From Eledone cirrhosa (taxonomy: Eukaryota): a DNA stretch of 64,000 nucleotides. Where the stretch lies: positions 20,956,001 through 21,020,000 of the forward strand of contig OZ024743.1 in assembly GCA_964016885.1 (NCBI GenBank). The letters run 5' to 3'. Under the pieces are notes generated by a model that saw nothing but the letters and a program-made list of their open reading frames with translations, was not told the DNA's origin and ran no database searches. The number at the start of each line of letters is the position of its first letter. Position 1 is the stretch's first letter. Positions 40,232 to 63,580 of the stretch are shown one piece after another. The position numbers and the translations under genes are program-made.

Positions 40232-41469
40232 GTAAGATATTTAAAGTAAATAAATATATTTTCAGCAATGCAAATAAGACATTAAATGTATAAAATGATG
40301 ATAACAAAGTTTTGGAATGTTGCCTTGGAAATCTTTAATTAGTCCTTAATATTTAGGGATAATAAAATACCTAGTGTTGTTCTCATGCTGACATTCTTTT
40401 AATTTTAACTGTCCTACTAAACTGATAGACAAGAACAGCTTTTGCAATTGAAATACACTACTGAATTTTTGTTAATATATTTCTGTATTTATTTTATTTT
40501 TGTCCAAGATCTTAGATACTAACACTCCATATAGTTGTTTATGTAAAGTCTGCTAGAGTCATTTTATTCAGTTCTTTACTATATATACAAGATACATTTA
40601 ACTACAAACATATAGAGCAACTTGACCTGCATATGAAGTAGATTACTCTATAAATATAAATCTTTGAATGTAAAATACTTTATATTGCATATAAAGTATT
40701 TTTCTAGCAAAGTTATTTTTTACTCAATATTTAATGCATCTCATTCTATAAGTACCACACTTTTTCCTGTATTTGAAAGGCACATTAGATTGCATGTAAA
40801 GAATGTTATCACATTATGAGAGATTTTATTCTACGTGTACAGTGAGCTTCACTCTCTATATATAGATACCTTTTCTTCTTTAATATGTTTCAATAGGAGA
40901 TGTGTAGCAGTTTTATTTCATTTTTAGGAAAGTCATCAGTAGTAAACATGTGCATCAGAAATTCATGCAGCTATTCTAGATATTTGCAATAGTGCAATTC
41001 ATGTTAAAATTATAGTTGACTGAATTAATTACTGATGAAAAATTTTAACTTGAAGGTGAGAAAGATGTAATTTTATATTTCAGCTTATTTCCTTTGACAG
41101 TGTGAAATACAATTTTGAATCTGATACTGTTTAATTCTTCAATTTAATATTTCCTTCCAAATTAAAATTTGATTTAAACCACAACCCAGTTGAAAAAGTA
41201 ATTATTTGTGTTTACACTAACAAGTAAAAAATATTGTGTGATGGCTAGCTTCAATGATTAGCTCCTAGCTATTCTTAGTGAATTAATAATTCTGTTCCTA
41301 TATATATTTAGTTACATGTTCAATTTCAATGAATTTCCCTGTAAATTCATTGAATAAATATGAAATTCTAAGACATAACATCAACTATCAATGTTGCTTT
41401 TATTAAATTAAATATATCAACTATGTGTGTATGTATATAAATATATATGTATATATGTGTATAAATATA

Positions 41470-41524
<55 letters not shown>

Positions 41525-41550
41525 GTATGTATGTATGTATATATATATAT

Positions 41551-42116
41551 AACCTGTCTCATGGTCGGGTCGTTGGCGACTAAACTGGCAACCCCACCAA
41601 GGTTTCTTGGTGAGGAGGGTGACTTTGGACATCCTGCAGGACTAAAAACAAAACCTGTCAAAGGGCAAAGGAGCTCTTAAGAGTCAATGGCCATCCAAAA
41701 TCACCGGGAGAGATGACCCCTTAGCCTTTGTCAAGGCAGAATTCTAGGAGAAGGAAAACTCTGATATAACACCTGCAACCCTGATGGTATCCAATGATCT
41801 TGACTTGTTCTTCTTTTTGGTAAATATCATCTTGGTTAAGAGAGTGGGACTGGCTTTGTGCAGTGCCTTTGCTCACTATAAAAGCTTCACGGCACAGGCA
41901 TTGCTTTATATCTGGAGATCTCTCTGCACTTGTCCTCACATGGTACCATGGGCCCAGCACTATGTGTCAATAATTGTCACAAGTGTAGTGTTTGTACCAG
42001 AGCTTTCAAGTCGCTGGCTGGACTAAAAAGTCACACTCGTTCAGCGCTTCGGTAGGGGTTCTCCTACATGGATATAAAGTAGTGGCCGTACTCGAAAACG
42101 AGTTGGCAGCCACCAT
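41551..42116 (+). mobile_element. Bipartite RTE-derived element, slightly 5'-truncated
   Basis: Near-identical to the 47138 copy; ends gccaccat(atgt)n. Confidence 0.8.
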
Positions 42117-42401
42117 ATATGTATGTATATATATATGTATGTATATGTATGTATATATATATATATGTATGTATGTATGTATGTATATATATATGTATGT
42201 ATGTATGTATATATGTATGTATATATATATGTATGTATGTATATATATATGTATATATGTATGTATATATATATGTATATATGTATGTATATGTGTATGT
42301 ATGTATATATGTATGTATGTATGTATATATGTATGTATGTATGTATATATGTATATACGTATGTATGTATGTATATATGTATATATATGTATATATATGT
42401 A

Positions 42402-42454
<53 letters not shown>

Positions 42455-42529
42455 ATATGTATATATATATATATGTATGTATATATGTATGTATGTATAT
42501 ATATATATATATGTATGTATGTATATATG

Positions 42530-42603
<74 letters not shown>

Positions 42604-42720
42604 TATGTATATATATATGTATGTATATATATATATGTATGTATATATGTATGTATATATGTATATAAATATGTATGTATATATGTATATGTATGTATAT
42701 ATGTATGTATATGTATGTAT

Positions 42721-43133
42721 CTGGGAGAGATGACCCCTTAGCCTTTGTCAAGGCAGAATTCTAGGAGAAGGAAAACTCTGATATAACACCTGCAACCCTG
42801 ATGGTATCCAATGATGTTGACTAGTTCTTCTTTTTGGTAAATATCATCTTGGTTAAGAGAGTGGGACTGGCTTTGTGCAGTGCCTTTGCTCACTATAAAA
42901 GCTTCACGGCACAGGCATTGCTTTATATCTGGAGATCTCTCCGCACTTGTCGTCACATGGTACCATGGGCCCAACACTATGTGTCAATAGTTGTCACAAG
43001 TGTAGTGTTTGTACCAGAGTTTTCAAGTCGCTGGCTGGACTAAAAAGTCACACTCGTTCAGCGCATCGGTAGGGGTTCTCCTACATGGATATAAAGTAGT
43101 GGTCGTACTCGAAAACGAGTTGGCAGCCACCAT
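42721..43133 (+). mobile_element. Bipartite RTE-derived element, 5'-truncated
   Basis: 3' 413 bp of the same family with an identical 3' end. Confidence 0.8.
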
Positions 43134-43274
43134 ATGTATGTATATATATATATGTATATAAATATGTATGTGTATATATATATATGTATGTGTATATATA
43201 TATATATAAATATATATGTATATATATATGTGTATATATATGTATATATATATGTGTGTATATATATGTATATA

Positions 43275-43367
<93 letters not shown>

Positions 43368-43376
43368 ATATATATA

Positions 43377-43430
<54 letters not shown>

Positions 43431-43436
43431 TGTATG

Positions 43437-43585
43437 ATTATTTCTGAAGACGGCATATATATGTGTTTGGTATGTATATTTAATTTTGATAGTTTGTATA
43501 ATTTTGTATAATTTCGTACATAGATCTGTTGAATATGCATGCCAATTCTAACACATATATATCCTAGAAACGATCGTTAAATAAT
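43437..43585 (+). ncRNA. Type-I hammerhead ribozyme with long stem II (Penelope pLTR-like segment 43437-43651)
   Basis: ATTATTT-CTGAAGA-[~116 nt, ends pairing via atatatatgtgtt/aacacatatatat and tggtatgtatatt/aatatgcatgcca]-GAAA-CGATCG-TT-AAATAAT. This gives a perfect 7-bp stem I, a palindromic ACGATCGT stem III and a GUU triplet (predicted cut after 43578). Confidence 0.7.
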
Positions 43586-43674
43586 GAACTTTTTTTGTTT
43601 AATATAAGGAACTGTTTCATTGTTTTATTCATTATTTTTTTAATATTTTATATATGTATATATATATATATATG

Positions 43675-43777
<103 letters not shown>

Positions 43778-44129
43778 GTATATATATATGTATAATATGT
43801 ATATATATATGTATATATATATATATATGTATATATATGTATATATATATGTATGTATATATGTATGTATATATATATATGTATATGTATATATATATGT
43901 ATATATATATGTATATATATATGTATATATATATATGTATATATATATATGTATATATATATGTATGTATGTATATATGTATATATATATGTATGTATGT
44001 ATATATGTATATATATATGTATGTATATATGTATATATATATGTATGTATGTATGTATGTATATATGTCTATGTATGTATATATATATATATATGTGTAT
44101 GTATGTATGTCTATATGTCTATATGTATG

Positions 44130-44164
<35 letters not shown>

Positions 44165-44307
44165 GTATGTATATATGTATATATGTATGTATATATATAT
44201 ATATATGTATGTATATATGTATATATGTATGTATATATGTATATATATATATATATATGTATGTATATATGTATGTATATATGTATTTATATATATGTAT
44301 ATATGTA

Positions 44308-44560
44308 TCATCATCATCATCATCAACGTTTAACGTCCGTGTTCCACGCTTGCATGGGTTTGGACGGGGGTAGTCCCACTTGAGGCAAGAGTGATTGTCT
44401 TGCTCGCATAGGACTGTCTGGCAGGTTTTCTACAGTTGGATGCCCTTCCTAACACCAACCACATTTACAGTGTGGGTCTGGGAGGTTTTTACCGTGTTGC
44501 CTACACGGCCACATTACAGCGTGGACTGTGTGTTTTTTTGTCGTGACACCTACACGATCT
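44308..44560 (-). mobile_element. Short retroposon with (GAT)n tail
   Basis: (cat)n-cgtttaacgtcc...ccacgcttgcatggg...ggatgcccttcctaacaccaacc; related to 51190 and to the tail of 32620. Confidence 0.7.
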
Positions 44561-44882
44561 CATATATATGTATATATGTATATGTATATATATATGTATA
44601 TATGTATATATATATGTATATATGTATATGTATATATATATATGTATATGTATGTATATATATATATATGTATATGTATATATGTATATGTATGTATATG
44701 TATATATATATATGTATATGTATGTATATATATATATATGTATATGTATGTATATATATATGTATGTATATGTATGTATATATATATATATATATATGTG
44801 TATGTATGTATGTATATATATATATATGTATGTATATATGTATGTATGTATATATATGTATATATGTATGTATGTATGTATG

Positions 44883-46970
44883 TTTTCTCTTTCTCTTAAT
44901 TTCGAGTATATTTTTTTGACTGGCCACCTTCCTGGTGGCAAGGTTGTAAAAGAAAAGAAATTGTCATCCCTTGAATCGCAAGAATGTTTTGCATATTTTG
45001 AAGGTGCCAGCTATCGCAGCCATTTGTAGACTATGAATTAGGGAGCTGCGCTTTTTGTCCGCAAATCCAAGTTCAGTCATACTTTGGTCCAAGCGGGTTG
45101 GTATATAACCCGTAGCACCAATAATGATGGGTATGAAGCTAAAGGTGTATCTTGGATACTGGATTTGTAAGCTCCTCATCAATGGTCCGTAGATGTCCTC
45201 CTTCTCCTGCATTTTTCTGACAACGTTTACATCAAGTGGGCAGCTGATCTCCACAACAGAACACGTTTTCAATGTGTGGTCCCAAACTACAATATCAGGC
45301 CGGTTGTGCTTTAATTTGGTGGCAGTTTTTATTTTCAGGTTCCACCAGTATTCCTTAGTGCCATCTGTCTCAATATATTCTTCCTCGTTTGTTGTTAATT
45401 TTGTTTTCCGAAGTGCGTTCCAGATAGTTCTAGCTATCCCATCGTGTCTCATGGGGAGGTAGTAGCGAGATGACATTCTTTCGCAGCTGGCAACAATGTG
45501 GCTTACATCCTCGATCTTTGTTTTACATAGCCTACATTTATTGTCAGCTGCTGGCCCTCCTCTTTTGTGCAGCAGATATTTGGTAGGGAGTTCTTGTTCC
45601 TGTATTGCATAGAGATATCCCTCAAGGTGTGATGTCATAAACTTGTCGGAACTCCATGCCAGGCTTTTTGAGTGGTTTATCCCCTCTATGGTCTGTGTTT
45701 TACGCCTCAAGTATCCATGCACAACTTTCTCTGTAAATTGGTCAATTTTCTTTTCTTGTTTGAACATTGAATAGGATCTTCCGATTTCTCTGGGTGAGAG
45801 ATTTATATCAGGCTTTATTCCATATCTCTCCTCCAGATCAGTCGCTATTCTAATGATATTTCTTTTTTCATGCTCATAAACCTGAGCAAGATGGTCGCCA
45901 ACCTTTTTCCTCTGTTGAAGGTGTTGCTTCAGTGTTACTATCCGGGTCTCATATGTTGTTAATATTGATTTTAGACCCCGGCCACCTTCCTTGCGTGAGA
46001 AGTATAGCCTATCCACATCACCATTGATGTTAAAGTTCCCAGTAACACTGAGAAGTTTACGAGTTCTAACATCCATCTCACTTAGTTCTTGCAATGACCA
46101 GTTCAGTAGGCCAAATGTTGGCGTTAGAATTGGCACAGCATAGGTATTGTGGGCAATGTATTTGTTGTATGCTGACAGTTCTGATGACCATTTTTTTTTT
46201 ACTCTTCTGAGGTATTCAGTTCTGGTTCTCTCCTTATTTATGGGTCCATCATATCTGACATTCTCATCCTGTCCAAGATATCTGTAGTTGTCACCTGACT
46301 GCAGAGGTTGTATTGTCAGGCCGTTCATATCTAGATTTCTAGAGGAGGGCACTGCTCTTCCACGTTTTACTGCCAAATATGCACACTTGGACTCACCAAA
46401 TTTCATTTTGATGTCGGTTGAAAATTGTGTAATGAGGTCCAATTGTTTCTTGATGTCATTGATATTTGGCCCATACAACTTCAGGTCATCAACAAAGAAA
46501 AGATGGGAGATACTTCTGGGCCCACTTCTTTGTCCACCTTGTTTCCTGAGTAGGTAAGATAGTGGATTCAGTGAGAGAACGAAGAGTAGTACTGACAAGC
46601 TATCACCCTGAAAGATGCCCTTCTGGTAATGTATCCTATCAGTCTTAACCTGCTCCTTCTCACCTCTAAGGATCAAATTGGTGTACCAGTTCTTGGTCAG
46701 GCGTTCAACAGCAGCTACTAATGGTTGTGGGACTTTAGCTAACTGTAAAGCCTTAATAATCCACCCATGAGGTACACTATCAAATGCTTTTTGATAGTCC
46801 AGCCACACAACAGTCATGTTTCTGCGATTCTTTGTTGTTTTTTCCTGAATCATTTTGTTAGTTAGTAGGTGATCTATGCAACCCCACACCTCCCTCTTTC
46901 CACCAGCTTGCTCAGGTGTTATGATGTTGTTGGTAGCACAGTGATCCTGTAAGAACAGGTTAAGGCACCC
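44883..46970 (-). mobile_element. 5'-truncated R4/Dong-type non-LTR retrotransposon inserted in (CATA)n
   Basis: RT plus C-terminal restriction-like endonuclease ORF, ~80-nt 3' UTR running into (CATA)n, microsatellite on both sides. Confidence 0.88.
44964..46969 (-). CDS. Reverse transcriptase + CCHC zinc knuckle + RLE endonuclease (no start codon; truncated)
   Basis: [50 protein letters not shown]...H...C, RHD, RPDIV...EISCP. The frame continues upstream of 46889 as [27 protein letters not shown]. Confidence 0.92.
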
Positions 46971-46986
46971 AATATGTATGTATGTA

Positions 46987-47022
<36 letters not shown>

Positions 47023-47074
47023 TATATATGTATGTATGTATGTATATGTATGTATGTATGTATGTATGTATATG

Positions 47075-47105
<31 letters not shown>

Positions 47106-47137
47106 ATATGTATGTATGTATGTATGTATATATGTAT

Positions 47138-47748
47138 GTCAGGTCACCAGTTGGTGCTACTGGTAACATGTATCCCAGTACAACCTGCCTCATGGTCGGG
47201 TCGTTGGCGACTAAACTGGCAACCCCACCAAGGTCTCTTGGTGAGGAGGGTGACTTTGGACATCCTGCAGGACTAAAAACAAAACCTGTCAAAGGGCAAA
47301 GGAGCTCTTAAGAGTCAATGGCCATCCAAAATCACCGGGAGAGATGACCCCTTAGCCTTTGTCAAGGCAGAATTCTAGGAGAAGGAAAACTCTGATATAA
47401 CACCTGCAACCTTGATGGTATCCAATGATGTTGACTTGTTCTTCTTTTTGGTAAATATCATCTTGGTTAAGAGAGTGGGACTGGCTTTGTGCAGTGCCTT
47501 TGCTCACTATAAAAGCTTCACGGCACAGGCATTGCTTTATATCTGGAGATCTCTCTGCACTTGTCCTCACATGAGTACCATGGGCCCAGCACTATGTGTC
47601 AATAATTGTCACAAGTGTAGTGTTTGTACCAGAGTTTTCAAGTCGCTGGCTGGACTAAAAAGTCACACTCATGCAGCGCTTCGGTAGGGGTTCTCCTACA
47701 TGGATATAAAGTAGTGGCCGTACTCGAAAACGAGTTGGCAGCCACCAT
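47138..47748 (+). mobile_element. Bipartite RTE-derived element, full copy
   Basis: 5' part has GGAGAAGGAAAACTCTGA; 3' part encodes [19 protein letters not shown] (C2H2-like); tail (atgt)n. Confidence 0.8.
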
Positions 47749-47927
47749 ATATGTATGTATGTATGTATATATATATATGTATGTATGTATATATATATGT
47801 ATGTATATATATATATATGTATGTATGTATGTATATATATATATATATGTATGTATGTATATATATATATATATGTATGTATGTATATATATATATATAT
47901 GTATGTATGTATATATATATATGTATG

Positions 47928-47958
<31 letters not shown>

Positions 47959-48077
47959 ATATATATATATATGTATGTATATATATATATATATGTATGT
48001 ATGTATATATATGTATGTATGTATGTATGTATATATATGTATGTATGTATGTATATACATATATATATGTATGTATG

Positions 48078-48110
<33 letters not shown>

Positions 48111-48265
48111 GTATATATATATGTATGTATGTATGTATATATATATGTATGTATGTATGTATATATATATGTATGTATGTATGTATATATATATGTATGT
48201 ATGTATGTATATATATATATATGTGTATGTATATATATGTATGTATATATATATATATATGTATG

Positions 48266-48296
<31 letters not shown>

Positions 48297-48300
48297 ATAT

Positions 48301-48341
<41 letters not shown>

Positions 48342-48357
48342 TATATATATATGTATG

Positions 48358-48388
<31 letters not shown>

Positions 48389-48393
48389 GTATG

Positions 48394-48428
<35 letters not shown>

Positions 48429-48541
48429 GTATATATATATATATATGTATGTATGTATATATATATATATATGTTTGTATGTATGTATATATGTATGTAT
48501 GTATGTATATATATATATCTGTATGTATGTATGTATGTATG

Positions 48542-48572
<31 letters not shown>

Positions 48573-48631
48573 GTATATATATATATATGTATACATGTAT
48601 GTGTATATATATATATGTATATATGTATGTG

Positions 48632-48687
<56 letters not shown>

Positions 48688-48697
48688 TATGTATATA

Positions 48698-48836
<139 letters not shown>

Positions 48837-48865
48837 ATATGTATATATATATATATATATGTATG

Positions 48866-48919
<54 letters not shown>

Positions 48920-49015
48920 TGTATATGTATATGTATATATATATGTATATGTATATATATGTATATATATATGTATATATATATGTATATGTATATATAT
49001 ATGTATATGTATATA

Positions 49016-49059
<44 letters not shown>

Positions 49060-49160
49060 TATATATATATATATATGTATATATATATGTATATATATAT
49101 GTATATGTATATATATATGTATATGTATATATATGTGTATGTATATATGTATATGTATAT

Positions 49161-49720
49161 AGATAAATCTACCAAAAGTTTACGGTAGTGTCCAATCCGT
49201 ATGAAGAACTCAATGTAATCCGGATATCATGGAAAGAAGAGATGCATTCAAAAATCACTTTCGGTGAAAGATAAACGGAATACAGAGTCAAGATAAAATA
49301 TTAAAAGGATAATGAATAGAGCAATGAAACGGTTCCTTATATTAAACGGGGAGGGTTCATTGTTTGACGATCGTTTCTGGGACATGTGTGTGTTGGAATT
49401 GGCATGCATGTTCAGCAGATCTATGTACAGAATTGTACAGGATTGTGCAAGCTATCAGGTGGAATATACATGCCGGCACATACATGTGCTGTCTTCAGAA
49501 ATAAATTATTATTTCTGAAGACGGCATATGTATGTGTTGGTGTGTGTATTCTGTTTGATGGTTTGTGTGATTTTGTATAGTTTTGTGCATGGATCTGTTG
49601 GGTGTGCATGCCAATTCTAACACGTGTGTGTCCTGGAGGCGATCGTTGAATGATGAACTTTTTTTGTTTAATATAGGGAACTGTTTCATTGTTTTGTTCA
49701 TTATTTTTTTAATATTTTAT
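49161..49720 (+). mobile_element. Inverted (fold-back) Penelope pLTR-like element; hairpin 49293-49720 with both arms A-to-G hypermutated
   Basis: Arms 49293-49504 and 49509-49720 are reverse complements with almost exclusively G.T mismatches. Both align to 43437-43651. 49161-49292 is an unpaired extension of the left arm. Confidence 0.85.
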
Positions 49721-49733
49721 ATATGTATATATA

Positions 49734-49769
<36 letters not shown>

Positions 49770-49946
49770 TGTATGTATGTATATATATATGTATGTATAT
49801 ATGTATGTATGTATATATATATATATATGTATGTATGTATATGTATATATATATGTATGTGTATATGTATATATATATGTATGTATATATGTATGTATAT
49901 GTGTATGTATGTATGTATGTATGTATATATGTATGTATGTATATAT

Positions 49947-50539
49947 GTCAGGTCACCACTTGGTGCTACTGGTAACATGTATTCCAGTACAACCTGTCCC
50001 ATGGTCGGGTCGTTGGCGACTAAACTGGCAACCCCACTAAGGTTTCTTGGTGAGGAGGGTGACTTTGGACATCCTGCAGGACTGAAAACAAAACCTGTCA
50101 AAGGAGCTCTTAAGAGTCAATGGCCATCCAAAATCACCGGGAGAGATGAACCCTTAGCCTTTGTCAAGGCGGAATTCTAGAAGGAAAACTCTGATATAAC
50201 ACCTGCAACTCTGATGGTATCCAATGATGTTGACTTGTTCTTCTTTTTGGTAAATATCATCTTGGTTAAGAGAGTGGGACTGGCTTTGTGCAGTGCCTTT
50301 GCTCACTATAAAAGCTTCACGGCACAGGCATTGCTTTATATCTGGAGATCTCTCTGCACTTGTCATCACATGGTACCATGGGCACTATGTGTCAATAATT
50401 GTCACAAGTGTAGTGTTTGTACCAGAGTTTTCAAGTCGCTGGCTGGACTAAAGTCACATTCGTTCAGTGCATCGGTAGGAGTTCTCCTACATGGATATCA
50501 AGTAGTGGCCGTACTCGAAAACGAGTTGGCAGCCACCAT
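49947..50539 (+). mobile_element. Bipartite RTE-derived element, full copy with small deletions
   Basis: Same termini as the 47138 copy. Confidence 0.8.
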
Positions 50540-50560
50540 ATATATATGTATGTATGTATG

Positions 50561-50621
<61 letters not shown>

Positions 50622-51189
50622 CCAACAGGGTAAACAGATGTTAAATGATGTTATATATATATATATATATATGTGTGTGTGATAATAAGGATTTAGATTG
50701 ATATACAATGATTTCGATCTCAGAGCTTACAATTTGCTCAACAAATCCATTTGGAGCCCATGCATTGGATGATTTGTAAAGCAACATTCCCAGTCAGGAG
50801 CCCTTGTCAAGAAGCAGAAGGAAATTATTGATTCAACAGTTTAACATGTAAAAACATTAAAGTACTCACAATTTTTGTCATTTGAAATGGCCAGTATCTT
50901 GTTAGAATAGGCGTCAGAATATAAAAATCCACATATTTGCCTGTACATTACAATTTTGGTCCAAAATGATAACCTGCTACTCATCAATTAAAGTTAAAAA
51001 TACAGCAAGGCTATGTATGTTTATATTACATAGACATGTTTCCATATATGTCTCTCTTCTGAATCATGCTGTGTTAATGCTATTGCTTACTATCATCATC
51101 ATCATCATCTAACCTCCATTTTCCCAGTGTATGTGTATTTACAGTATATAAATACACACACACACACACACACGTATATATATATATAT

Positions 51190-51470
51190 ATCATCATCAT
51201 CATCACCCTCACCGTTTAACGTCCATCTTCCACGCTAGCATGGGTTTGACGGTTTTGTCCCACTTGAGGTGAGATTGGTCAGGAGACTATGTCTTGCTCA
51301 TACAGAACTGTTTCTGGCAGGTTTTCTACAGATGGATATGCCATTCCTAACACCAACAACATTTACAGTGTGGACTGGGAGCCTTTTTACCGTGTCTCTT
51401 ACACAACCACTTTACAGTGTGGATTGGGTGATTTTTGTTGTCTGCTACATGACCACTTTACAGTGAATGG
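51190..51470 (-). mobile_element. Short retroposon with (GAT)n tail
   Basis: Aligns to 44308-44560. Confidence 0.7.
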
Positions 51471-51974
51471 AAATGGGAGGATGGAGTAGGGGGTGTGGGG
51501 CATTTATTGGGTTAAGAGGTGCCTACTGACTGTAGGTTTCAGTTTGTATGTAAGGGAAGGCGAGTCTTATATATATATATATATATATATATATTGGCTG
51601 CATCACTGTTTTAAGAATTGCCATCCCTTAACCATTTCTTCATAAATGGGTGGCACATTCCTTTCTGCAAATGCTGCAGTAACAGAAAAAGAAAGGTCAT
51701 GTTCACACAACTTACTTAAAAGGTTTTACATCAGAGTTTTCCTTCTCCTAAAATGATGTCCTGACAAGAACAAGGAGTATCTTACTCCCAATCACCTAAC
51801 TGCATGCTCAGGCATGAAACCAATTAATTTTATGTCCTTGTGCATATTTATGTGTGTGTGTGTATGTATATATATATATACACACACATACATATATACA
51901 GTAGAAGTTGCTTTTTCTGATTCTAATAAGCTGATAAGATTCAATAAAGATGAGGTTTTAGGATCCAGTCATAT

Positions 51975-52077
51975 TGATAACAATTGTTTCTTCTTTTGGC
52001 ACAAGGCCAGCAATTATCCTAGTACATTACTGGTACTTTATTTTATCGACCCCGTAAGGATGAAAGGCAAAGTTAAC
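51975..52077 (-). mobile_element. 5'-truncated SINE family A
   Basis: Tail and core only. Confidence 0.75.
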
Positions 52078-52379
52078 TAATTATGTGATTATATTAGTGG
52101 AAAAGAAGAATATGAAATAGATGAGAAGCTAGATATCAAGTTTACATACCATGTAACTGAAAGCCAGTGTTCTTCATTGAGAGCATCAGAGGTAGGAGAT
52201 ATTCTGGATTGCAGGGTGACGGGTATCAGTGTGAATCAAATCATTGTTGGAGAATGACACTGATGCACTTATCCTCACTCTTGCTCAGTAAAAAGAAGCT
52301 TGAAAAAGTTATGAGTGGTTGCTGAATGTGGAGGACACACATGGAAATATGGACAATTCCCAGTAAAATAAACAGAGAA

Positions 52380-52830
52380 CCTAGTTATTGAGGTAGACAG
52401 TTGTATGGTCAAAAAGGCAATCGAGGATATGAAGGAAAAAGCTGACATACGAACAGGGACAATTGCTGAGATGCTGAAAATATTTGGCAAATATAGTTTG
52501 AGCTAGTCACTCATGAGGTAGTATATGATGGTATCATACCTGATGAATGGCGGCATAGCACTATCATCATTTGCAAGAGTGAAAGTGATGCTCTAGATGG
52601 GTGCAACTAAAATTACATAGTTACATCTAAATGATGGATCAAGCTATGAAAGTAGCAGAAAGAGTCTAAGCATAACTGATTAGGGAAAGAATTAGATTAG
52701 ATGAGATGCAGTTTGGATATTTGCCAAGATTGAGAACTACTTTTTAGTGAAATAGGAATGGTTAAAAATAAGCCATTATATTTAGCTTTTATTGGATAGA
52801 AAGCCTTCAACAAAGTACCACATTCTGTTG
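52380..52830 (+). pseudogene. Decayed RTE-like reverse transcriptase fragment
   Basis: Broken reading of IPDEWRHSTI, EMQFG and AFI..KAFNKVPH motifs with stops and frameshifts. Confidence 0.55.
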
Positions 52831-55270
52831 TATATTGTTTCACAGTTTTGATACCAAACCACTCAAAATCTTGTTTTATACTGTTTATATACATCTAAAA
52901 ACCTATCATAAATTTATATAAGAACCATTTAATTATGATCCAAACTTGATGAGAAAATTAGGGGTGTTCATTTGCTAATGAAATTGTATTATTGCACCCA
53001 AAGCAATTTTATTTAAATAATTGTATCAAAATTGTGCATATGCTCACATATTATAAACAGGTTTAGTATTACCAATACCTGTTATTTTGAACTGTATTTT
53101 TTTTAGTTCAAATCCTGTTGAGTCTACATTCCACCCACTCCTGAGTTTACAACATAAGTATATAAACTGTGCATGTGATTCTTAATATTTATCGATCTTT
53201 CTTTCTTTTACAATAAACATCAGTTGTTAGCAAAGTGACAATGATTTCATAGTAGAAAGTGAATTGTGACAACTATTAGAATGTACATATTTGTTCGGCA
53301 CTTGATATATGTGCATATGTGTTTCTTTCAATTGATAAATTGAAGATATGATAATTCAAAGGCGGTTTTCTGGATTTTTCTACATTATGTTCTATATATA
53401 ACTTTAAGCTTCAATGTTTCTGTATAAATATATTTATATATAGCTTATTCCTATTGTTCCAATGTACAAGGGTTTTTTTTTATTTTCTGTAATAAAACAT
53501 TCATATCTGCTAACTTGTGCAGTAGTATATGACATTTAGTCCCTTGTGCCAAGTCTTTCAGGTTTTCACCAAATAACTCTACATGTATAAAATTTAGATT
53601 TATCTTACTTTTTAAAAAAAAGTCATGCTTATAACTTTTGTCAGATTTCTCCTCCCAGCAGATAGCATTGTGTGTCATTTGTGAAAAATTGATACACATT
53701 TATGAGATTTACACTCATGCATGCATCTAGAATATACGAATGAAAAATTATGTTGAAAAGTTCCAAAGTCAATCAACTTTAAAATGTTTATAAAGATGCA
53801 CCCACTTACATGTTACAAAACTGATTGTCCAATAGCTGAATGAACTGGTTTATAATATATTGTTCCTCCTCTAACCTAGATACCATATACTTATGTGACT
53901 ATTGTTTTCAAAATTAGTCATTTAAAAAAATTATTTCAGTAATTTTATAGCAAATGGAAACAGCCATTTTAGAATTTACTATGGAGAATTAAAATATCTT
54001 ATTACATATTAACTGGAATATACAGAGGCATGTGCTTCCTATCTTGACTTGCTTGCATTTTTTCTGTGTTATTTAGAGTGCACAGATGCATCATAATTTT
54101 CCAAACAAGTCTATATACGAATATGAAAAATAATTGAAAACAACGAATAGCAGATTACCTGTACAAAAACTGTTTAAAACCTATTGGGGTATAAAAGAAA
54201 AATAATTTTATAATTTAAAACAAGTACTTTTCTAAGCATTACAAAAAAAATGAAAGCAAAACAATCCTTTTAATATTATCCAGTTATCTAAATGTATAAT
54301 TTCTATTCAGCAGAAATTACTAGAAGCATGAAATGAAGCATGAAATGTTCAAGATATTCCTCAAAATAAATACATTTATAACTTTGATAATTCTTGTATT
54401 TTAAAACTCTTTTTTATTATTATTTGAAACTCATATGTATCTTTTTATAATAACATGTCTAATATACATAAAGCAAAAGTCTGCTGATTCTAAAATTCTA
54501 CTTCAGTTTCTTGTGTTCACTCTTACATATTTATTTAGTCATGTGTTATTTCTTTATTAATTTATAGAAAACTACATTTTAAGTTCACAATTCCAATTAC
54601 AAATCACTTTTCCATTTTGAATATTTATCCTAAAACTATTATCTATGATATAGATTTTTATCTATATATGTAAAATTGTTTGTATTGAGTGTATTTAAAT
54701 ATGTGTGTGTATGAGTGCATATTGATGTATATGTATTTAGAATATATATACTCATACCAAACCCATGCAAGCGTCAAACATGGACGTTAAACGATGATGA
54801 TGATATGTCAGGCAGTTTACAACTTCCTTATTAAAATGATGACAATCTTATAAAAACCTATATTACATTTGACGAGTAGGAAGATCAACTTCCTCTTGTA
54901 ATGGTAAATATGTTGTTGTTTTTTAAAGTCACTTATTATATTTCAATATAATTCGAGCATCTAATCTTTCAAGTTCTGACATCTTTACTACAGAAAGAAG
55001 ATGACAATTTTATTATCTGCCATTGTATTAAAAAGAAAAGACAGTATAGCTTTTGATTACAGCCTTCATAACTGTCATATTGACAATTTTAATTTCTCAC
55101 ATTTCAAATTTCACAGCAATTTCACAGATATGTTCAATTGAAGCACAAAACAGAAGAATTTACCCCATTTAAGTTGTTACTTTAGTTGAAAACTATATTT
55201 TGCATATTTTGAAATATAATTCTTTACTCTAGTTATTGTGAAAACTTAAACATTTTCTTTTATATTTCAG

Positions 55271-60999: not shown

Positions 61000-61636
61000 T
61001 ATAATAATTATTTCTAACATTGGCACAAGGCCAGCAATTTAGGGGAAGGTAAAGGCAATTAAATAACCCAGTACGAAAACTTTATTTATTTAACATAGGC
61101 ATAAGAGAGTCACCATATAAAGGGTACATTGTGTGTATTTGAGATATATCGAGGTTTAATATTGCATTAAATTTTGGCTAGGAAAGTTACACAATAGAAT
61201 AAGAGACAAATAAACCACCATAAGTGAAACTTAAGGGTCAGTCCATACTTGACTTGTACTTTATTTTATTACTGCCTGAAAGGATAAAGGGCAAAGTTGA
61301 CCTGTGTAGGATTTTACCTCAGAAAATAAAAGTCCATAACTAAATGGTGCAAAGTATTTCTCTTTCCCTAAATTGCTGGCCTAGGTTAGAAAGAATTGTT
61401 ATTATTGAGGGAGAATCCAATTATTCTCCCTCAATAATAATTATTTCTAACCTAGGCACAAGGCCAGCAATTTAGGGAAAGAGAAACTCGATCATATCAA
61501 CCCTAGTACTTAAATAGTACTTTATTTTATCAACCCCCAGAAGGATGAAAGGCAAGGTTGACCTAAGAAAGGTTTGAACTCAATGTTGCAAAGGATTTTG
61601 TCTAATGCTTTAACAGTTCTGCCAATCCACTACCCT
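61000..61636 (-). mobile_element. Cluster of SINE family A copies with an internal fold-back
   Basis: ggcacaaggccagcaatttaggg at 61022 and 61455; cores at ~61255 and ~61515. Confidence 0.7.
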
Positions 61637-62414: not shown

Positions 62415-62472
62415 AACTGTACTGTTGAAAGTAGTATCCCATAATGTCAGTAAAAGAAATACAAACACATAA

Positions 62473-62790
62473 GAAGTCAATGTACTTGAATCTTACATCA
62501 TTTTATTGATTACATTATTACTGTTATATATATTTCAGTGGTATCTATTGTATAATAGATGCGACCTTATCAGACAGCTGTTATGTAATCTTTTGTTCAT
62601 CAAATGATATGTCAGCTGGGCATTGGAGAAGAAACCTCAAAGCCTGCCTGAGATGTATACAAAAGATTACACAATAGCTCTCTGATAAGGTTGTATCTAT
62701 TACATAATCGATACCACTGAAATACATATATATATATAATAGTAGCAAAGTAATCAATAACATTATGTAAGATTCAAGTACATTGACTTC
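62473..62790. repeat. Imperfect fold-back (~130-bp arms, ~50-nt spacer) containing a decayed hammerhead-like motif
   Basis: gaagtcaatgtacttgaatcttacat at 62473 pairs with atgtaagattcaagtacattgacttc ending at 62790; pairing continues inward. Confidence 0.85.
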
Positions 62791-63580
62791 ATTATTATAT
62801 TAATACTCCACATTTGTTAGTGGATCAACAAGTACAACCTGAAAATCAATAATTGATTAACTAACACCAAAGAACCATATATATATATTTTATTATTATT
62901 TTTTTTTAATTTTTACTGGTTTCAGTCATTAGATTGAGGCTATGCCTTGAAATGGTTTTGTGTCAATCATATCAACTCCGTATATAAATTATCTTCTTAT
63001 TTTATCAATCTATAATTCACAAACTGGTAAGTTATGTGACATAAAATATCATCACCTGATTTTAAGTAGTGTCAAATACAGATAGGAATACACACATTAG
63101 GCTTCTGTACAGCTTCCATCGACCAAATTTTACTCTCAAGGCATTAAAAAGCAAGTTGTTAACCATATAATCATACCTACACCTCTGCTGAATAGCAGGG
63201 AAAAGCAGACGTAAAATGATGATCATGATCATGATATATATGGTTGTGGTGATGACATGATAAATCACCCTTTAAGGAGATCATGTCTGTGACACAACAA
63301 AAAGCACCTATTGAAACCTGTAAAGTGGTCATATTGGTGGGCACAACATAAGGTACTCAGTCAACCCTGTGGAGCAATCAAATTGGTGACGTGAAAAAAG
63401 CCCCCAGCCAAACTGTAAAGGCATAGAAACAAAATCAGAAACTCTTCTGTATGAGCAAGATATGATCACCTGATGTGACTTGTCTCACAATGGGACAACT
63501 CATTTGACCCATGTTAACATGCATAAATGATGTTAAACAGTGATTATGATGATGATATGTGTGTGTGTATGTGAGTCAGT

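Follow-up and report, generated by a model that had tools for sequence, protein, structure and literature searches.

How does the hammerhead-bearing end of a retrotransposon come to carry, in genomic DNA, a cluster of A-to-G changes that turns the GAAA half of its core into GAGG, and is the loss of that core a selected outcome or a by-product? The locus that raises this question lies in a 64,000-nucleotide stretch of the 3.0-Gb Eledone cirrhosa assembly (G000:C4:20956001-21020000; hereafter the window), in which positions 49156-49720 form a head-to-head hairpin with 54 A-to-G changes on one strand, in the paired arms only. The parts of the hairpin and an unedited copy from the same window are as follows.

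49156..49504, minus strand: long (about 350-nt) hairpin arm; 32 A-to-G changes on the plus strand, equal to T-to-C in the element sense
49156..49292, minus strand: tail of the long arm, without a pairing partner; family positions 216-352
49505..49507: hairpin junction; shared with 8 unedited loci that have other haplotypes
49508..49720, plus strand: short (215-nt) hairpin arm with 22 A-to-G changes; 3' end of a Penelope-like element, including its hammerhead
43437..43651, plus strand: unedited solo short arm, in the family-majority state with one private change

A One-Stranded, Duplex-Confined Pattern of Change

Relative to the majority of 108 other arms, the right arm has 22 private A-to-G changes and no private change of any other kind. 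The private changes of the left arm are 32 T-to-C, one G-to-A, one C-to-T and one further change, its edits all falling in family positions 20-201; 32 of the 98 A sites in its paired part are edited, against 0 of 53 in its unpaired tail (Fisher p=1.4e-7). Neighbouring bases were compared with 13 polymorphic positions excluded, which drops one of the right arm's 22 changes. A 5' G is depleted at edited sites (1/17 edited vs 52/141 otherwise, p=0.012) and a 3' G is favoured (8/11 vs 45/147, p=0.007). In the other edited copies described below, the figures for a 5' G are 2/56 vs 117/325 (p=8e-8, searched sites removed), and upstream G depletion is described in PMC5625713 as an ADAR preference common to animals. 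Changes of A to G alone and on one strand, confinement to the duplex, and depletion of 5' G are the marks of ADAR hyper-editing, and the hairpin carries each of them.

The direction of the changes is given by the rest of the genome, where the unedited 28-mer spanning the core has 6,237 exact matches, against 9 arms with G just before the core. A is the ancestral state at the edited core sites, as the first-pass annotation of this DNA had held. Its reading of the letters was likewise exact: ATTATTT, the 5' strand of stem I, and CTGAAGA are kept, GAAA is lost, and stem I gains G.U pairs. Its view that a hairpin RNA had received ADAR-type edits and was later copied into DNA gains support from the one-strand polarity, the duplex confinement and the ADAR-like neighbours.

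Ordinary mutation, an ancestral G followed by C-to-T decay, a DNA deaminase or sequencing error offer other sources for such a pattern. Clusters of a single mismatch type can be sequencing artefacts, as noted in PMC2873906, and the 43437 copy has no Rfam hammerhead match. Against these sources, the polarity is fixed by the 6,237 intact copies, the changes are one-stranded and end at the duplex edge, and none like them occur in 51 other hairpins, picked by similarity and so biased to unedited ones, or in 23 of 25 loci picked by junction (8 of the 9 hairpins sharing the junction of the window hairpin and 15 of the 16 sharing that of another edited locus, L067, are unedited). A 210-nt short-read contig (depth 4.45) from run X1, which may be the sample behind the assembly, spans 49512-49709 with one letter of difference; since it carries the edited right arm, the changes are not a long-read error. 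These alternatives are largely refuted, and we regard them as very improbable.

A Young Penelope-Like Family

The family whose majority state is represented by the 43437 copy is young: the best 40 of 639 candidates are 99-100% identical. The motif of a second subfamily has 1,035 genome matches. Longer copies extend upstream through a low-complexity region into a frame of 827 amino acids (L093). Compared by eye with the description in PMC8557442, the frame contains DKT, RWK-like, CxCX5C linker, CxxC and CxH motifs, with the reverse transcriptase followed by a C-terminal GIY-YIG. Pfam gave no match for the whole frame and, for its C-terminal part, GIY-YIG at E=0.008, below the cut-off. Copies stop near position 215 or near position 350, abutting (TA)n. 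These end points match the two reverse-transcription starts and the optional tail reported for a lizard Penelope element (PMC11167929), and (TA)n targets, inverted copies and an optional tail are Hydra-clade traits present in the family. As described by Craig et al. (PMC8557442), Hydra-clade Penelope elements likewise have a C-terminal GIY-YIG, DKT, CxCX5C, (TA)n targets, inverted 5'-truncated copies and an optional tail. To judge from these features, the family is a Penelope-like retrotransposon of Hydra-clade character; a Neptune label was tried and dropped in favour of Hydra-like on comparison with PMC8557442.

The first-pass annotation had named either a Penelope-like element or a retrozyme as the source. 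The former stands on motifs and targets; the latter was rejected. Non-LTR retrozymes are described as head-to-tail tandem units, each with a hammerhead and with no open reading frame (bioRxiv 10.64898/2026.07.22.740005), whereas copies of this family occur singly or in head-to-head pairs and extend into an autonomous, ORF-bearing element of which the hammerhead forms the end.

Two further features of the family were observed. In full elements (L083-L093) the open reading frame and the hammerhead are separated by a low-complexity stretch of several kb, rich in TG/TA and, on the sense strand, in G, a bias that past editing may have shaped. At family positions 1-6, the 5' edge of stem I, 5' truncation and inversion cluster, with varied junctions at many loci.

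Head-to-head pairs are ordinary for this family. Among the first 100 listed of the 6,237 intact cores there are 16 tight head-to-head pairs (within 500 bp) and 17 wider ones (within 13 kb), all with both cores intact, and about a third of the listed cores sit in tight hairpins. Scaled from 16 per 100, we estimate roughly 1,000 tight intact-core hairpins genome-wide, against 2-3 edited ones.

Genomic Setting of the Hairpin

Both the edited hairpin and the 43437 copy lie in one intron of a receptor gene, amid other insertions:

9440-55799, plus strand: receptor exons, coding for a ligand domain of the ANF-receptor type and a tyrosine-kinase domain
40232..55270, plus strand: GT-AG intron of the receptor gene, 15 kb, holding both the 43437 and the 49508 copies
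44883-46969, minus strand: reverse-transcriptase fragment, 2.1 kb, part of a nested pile
47140..47745, plus strand: 600-bp non-autonomous element, one of four, with a C2H2 remnant; unedited

The host receptor resembles a Venus kinase receptor; guanylate-cyclase motifs sought downstream in the gene were not found, and it ends as a kinase. The 600-bp elements, RTE-like by their features, show no A-to-G excess in five window copies. The (TA/TATG)n tail of one of them is likely the hairpin's target, and the G-rich (TA/TATG)n flanks, considered as possible edits, were dropped as they look like that element's native tail.

Positions 41412-50619 of the window hold nested, microsatellite-targeted elements in this single intron (four 600-bp elements, two Penelope ends and a short repeat). 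Elsewhere in the window, 62469-62795, 61357-61486 and 39-1698 contain further palindromes and a triple repeat of 350 bp, parts of it inverted. Microsatellites in the window swamped the repeat finder.

The Hammerhead Core in Edited and Unedited Arms

The core of the edited right arm reads as follows.

49515..49521, plus strand: CUGAAGA core half, unchanged
49635, plus strand: A changed to G at family position 130, which is 11.1 in hammerhead numbering; the family's C.A mismatch beside the core becomes C-G
49636..49639, plus strand: GAAA core half, now GAGG, with A14 and A15.1 changed
49640..49654, plus strand: stem III region and 3' strand of stem I; predicted cleavage after U 49647; two G.U pairs

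In the unedited 43437 copy, the core of a type I hammerhead is complete (C3UGANGA9, G12AAA15.1, U16.1, H17). Across 204 arms, which are related to one another, H17 is U in 159, A in 41, C in 4 and never G, and N7 varies once. Stem I has 7 bp adjoining the core, its changes being mostly pairing-neutral, with U.G at 3:147 in 39 of the 204 arms; those in stem II mostly preserve pairing, which among 204 related arms carries little weight. The stem III region is palindromic in the unedited family, helix III forming a palindrome of 10 nt (positions 133-142) as for Penelope-type dimer folding. In being of type I with a palindromic helix III, the motif resembles the Penelope hammerheads described by Cervera and de la Pena (PMC4209133). 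A paired N10.1-N11.1 is given as a hammerhead criterion in PMC3088659, with G-C conserved there according to PMC4209133; here the pairing fails, with C.A in 196 of the 204 arms, and may alternatively be read as a bulged C and an extra A before G12. This C.A in place of G10.1-C11.1, together with a very long stem II and a tail of about 135 nt, sets the family apart from the Hydra-clade elements and hammerheads described in these sources. Rfam gave no hammerhead match on the 43437 copy, possibly owing to its 110-nt stem II, and none among the matches listed for the window (150 of 189). On sequence grounds, we take the unedited motif to be a putative hammerhead of the Penelope type.

The predicted minimum of the 43437 copy is an inactive rod, 3.4 kcal/mol lower than the hammerhead, in which C3 and G12 pair (P 0.89). 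With G130 as the sole private change, as in one natural copy, the predicted probability of C3-G12 pairing falls from 0.89 to 0.25, a figure in which G overstates the effect of inosine. A small subfamily (L201, L203, L210) carries G130 in the genome, giving C-G beside the core with GAAA intact: a closed-stem variant that spread.

In the window hairpin, three of the right arm's 22 A-to-G changes fall in or just before the GAAA half of the core (49635, A14 and A15.1), and GAGG lacks both the required A14 and the A15.1-U16.1 pair. Changes at A14 or A15.1 cut hammerhead activity over 100-fold, as reported in PMC4075628, and from such mutants the 49508 core would be expected to be inactive, as had been claimed when its loss was first noticed. 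In the left arm GAAA survives and a GUC triplet has arisen, but stems I and II contain A.C and C.C mispairs.

Other Edited Copies and the Origin of the Hairpin

About six loci of the main subfamily are hyper-edited, each with a distinct pattern: the window hairpin, L066, L067, L068, L069 and L076. Three pattern searches gave 9, 7 and 6 matches, of which 5, 2 and 0 were hyper-edited and the remainder single changes. A core-independent pattern gave 3 matches, all three of them known copies, and a search on A15.1 alone gave 6, all single mutants; as neither found a new hyper-edited copy, few such copies of the main subfamily are probably missing. Two other subfamilies were searched as well, with 1 and 13 matches; of these, L197 and L204 may be edited. 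L197 has three A-to-G changes. L204 (G000:C3:125968135-125971160, positions 858-1722) is an inverted pair in which both arms share the same sense-strand A-to-G changes, including A15.1, with 14 A-to-G against 13 other differences to its nearest relative; its G130 was rejected as an edit, being inherited in its small subfamily (L201, L203, L210).

These copies bear on how the hairpin arose. Neither L068 nor L069 has a complementary partner within 10 kb, and in L066 and L067 the edits extend past truncated partners, so that these copies were likely edited elsewhere and inserted anew. The tail of L068 is unedited (0/30). L076 (G000:C1266:38774-39242), a tail-to-tail pair at a contig end, has one-strand edits through its whole long arm (46/122).

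We propose that the window hairpin was copied into DNA from a single read-through RNA after ADAR had hyper-edited it, with core loss as a likely by-product, and give this reading a probability of about 0.7. Ordinary insertion of the family would often yield head-to-head DNA hairpins from one RNA. Such a hairpin would occasionally be transcribed through; its 215-bp duplex would trap the ribozyme, and about a third of its adenosines would be edited. Reverse transcription by the element's own enzyme would then start at the usual position 215 on the sense arm, cross the junction and insert the copy into (TA)n, inosine becoming G. One RNA, folded back and edited before reverse transcription, would be the simplest source. 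Junctions that vary within one subfamily, and the A-to-G changes shared by the L204 arms, fit the formation of hairpins de novo from one RNA.

Several observations count against a DNA copy: the edited strand is also the transcript strand of the gene whose intron contains the hairpin; arm-specific rare variants outnumber shared ones in unedited hairpins (52 to 19); and genome searches found no unedited parent with the junction and haplotype of the window hairpin, nor a clear parent for L067. The hairpin might instead have been rewritten in place, the host pre-mRNA reading through it, being edited and then templating repair or gene conversion at the same locus. Its position inside the 15-kb intron and the lack of a parent in the searches keep this alternative in play. 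In-place conversion requires the edited strand to be the host's transcript strand, as it is at this locus and at L068, and both hairpin ends coincide with end points usual in the family. By chance alone, however, the strands would agree at any locus with even odds, and the 150 of 397 candidate frames scanned revealed no host gene at the other four loci; the parent may be missing from this haplotype, and the four other sense-edited copies, each without all or part of the partner it needed, are likely new insertions. We consider in-place rewriting improbable and retain the DNA copy of an edited RNA as the preferred origin.

Signs of Editing in a Second Sequencing Run

Run X2 comes from the same organism and study as X1 but from another sample (88 Mb of contigs), and its RNA nature is inferred from its behaviour; runs X5 and X7, from other organisms, gave 2 contigs each and were left out. 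On the unedited arm, and with percentages that are crude, being contig depths, A-to-G in X2 reaches 17.8% at position 130 (26 contigs) and 20.9% at position 134, which is A15.1 (27 contigs), placing both among its most edited sites. Elsewhere it is 19% at 123, 48% at 47, 4.7% at 121 and 1.5% at 133, and T-to-C at 197-201 is 3-4.5%. In X1 the value at 130 and 134 is 0.0005%, the depth of the window's own contig. X2 thus has A-to-G and T-to-C sites absent from X1, which we count for an RNA-editing origin, and a single expressed genomic copy would not readily give such different levels at 133 and 134. We infer that X2 records ongoing editing of the family's transcripts, for the most part within the long stem II of the ribozyme itself.

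Genomic arms with G number 9 at position 130 and 11 at position 134, of about 6,260 (under 0.2%). Set against 18-21% G in X2, edited RNA would be about 100-fold under-represented among insertions. This is restriction-like, but in a sense opposite to that first suggested, the progeny being intact and not dead; a difference between tissues (soma and germline) or protection of the template RNA would explain it equally well. The edit at position 130 is predicted to close the mismatch beside the core, and that at A15.1 likely kills the core. ADAR might on this basis toggle the ribozyme, the first edit freeing the core and the second killing it, with edited transcripts excluded from insertion and the hyper-edited copies as escapees; we offer this as a speculation that is probably wrong. 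The inheritance of G130 in a subfamily that spread weakens the idea that G130 blocks insertion.

Core Loss as a Probable By-Product of Editing

The first-pass annotation had suggested that ADAR restricts the element by leaving ribozyme-dead progeny, or that only RNAs escaping cleavage are inserted; either would enrich dead cores. Five hyper-edited sense arms, that of the window hairpin included, have A15.1 changed in 5/5 and A14 in 4/5, and the X2 levels at A15.1 and position 130, beside so few genomic arms with G, might be read in the same direction. Position 171 is also changed in 5/5 of these arms and four further sites in 4/5; the CUGAAGA adenosines are changed in none of three each. At context-matched rates, GAAA survival has p=0.32, and the loss of GAAA in 4/4 arms outside the window (p about 0.21) fits the background rate. 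For A15.1, lost in the same 4/4, p is about 0.04 at the AAC rate; this hints at selection, though the site is also a hotspot in X2.

Against restriction stand about six hyper-edited loci to 6,237 intact cores: progeny are not ribozyme-dead, over 99.8% of them retaining the site, and L197 keeps GAAA intact despite its A-to-G changes. A tie between core loss and the inverted arrangement, as had also been suggested, is not supported either, most hairpins having intact cores and two edited loci lying without a partner in 10 kb. The full hairpin RNA is predicted to form a duplex at -329 kcal/mol, compared with -43, which would trap the ribozyme without any edit, and hammerhead mutants of one Penelope element showed no effect on insertion in vitro, as reported by Frangieh et al. 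(PMC11167929). Since the background rate fits, the hairpin would trap the ribozyme anyway and hammerhead mutants insert in vitro, the change from GAAA to GAGG is likely a by-product of editing and not a selected outcome. As a specific claim, restriction by ribozyme killing is weak, and we think it quite unlikely.

Relation to Known Systems and Significance

The closest precedent is the A-to-G hypermutation of avian retroviruses (Rous-associated virus, avian leukosis virus; Felder 1994, Hajjar and Linial 1995, cited in PMC12925331), in which, as described there, ADAR-type changes in an inverted-repeat region were likewise fixed in DNA through reverse transcription. In contrast with those viruses, the element here is endogenous and likely inherited, several copies are independently affected, and the edits fall in a ribozyme. 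As in the APOBEC-edited LTR retrotransposons of Knisbacher and Levanon (PMC4866542), marks of a host deaminase are kept in genomic copies; in that account, however, vertebrate cDNA carries the changes, which are G-to-A, and invertebrates served as the negative control, whereas here they are A-to-G on RNA and limited to the duplex. Hyper-edited repeat RNAs described by Porath et al. (PMC5625713), among them a lizard Penelope and a palindromic frog Harbinger, are also fold-back ADAR targets with 5' G depletion, but those edits are in RNA only and these are in DNA. The same source gives a weaker 3' G preference in invertebrates; here 70% of 3' G sites are edited (33/47), making up 19% of edits. 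Editing-sensitive hammerheads are described in PMC3923133 as engineered, not natural, ribozymes.

A PDB search gave no relevant match. A shallow search of the mainly open literature found no genomic ADAR-edited Penelope copies and no natural ADAR-controlled hammerhead; in the literature searched, the fixing of ADAR edits in DNA by reverse transcription is described only for exogenous retroviruses. The locus is a clean case in which RNA edits were likely made into heritable DNA through a retrotransposon. The edits serve as a tracer of the strand and the molecule that a Penelope element copies, and the natural variants with an intact core, a closed stem II or a dead core offer a direct test of the role of the hammerhead in Penelope elements.
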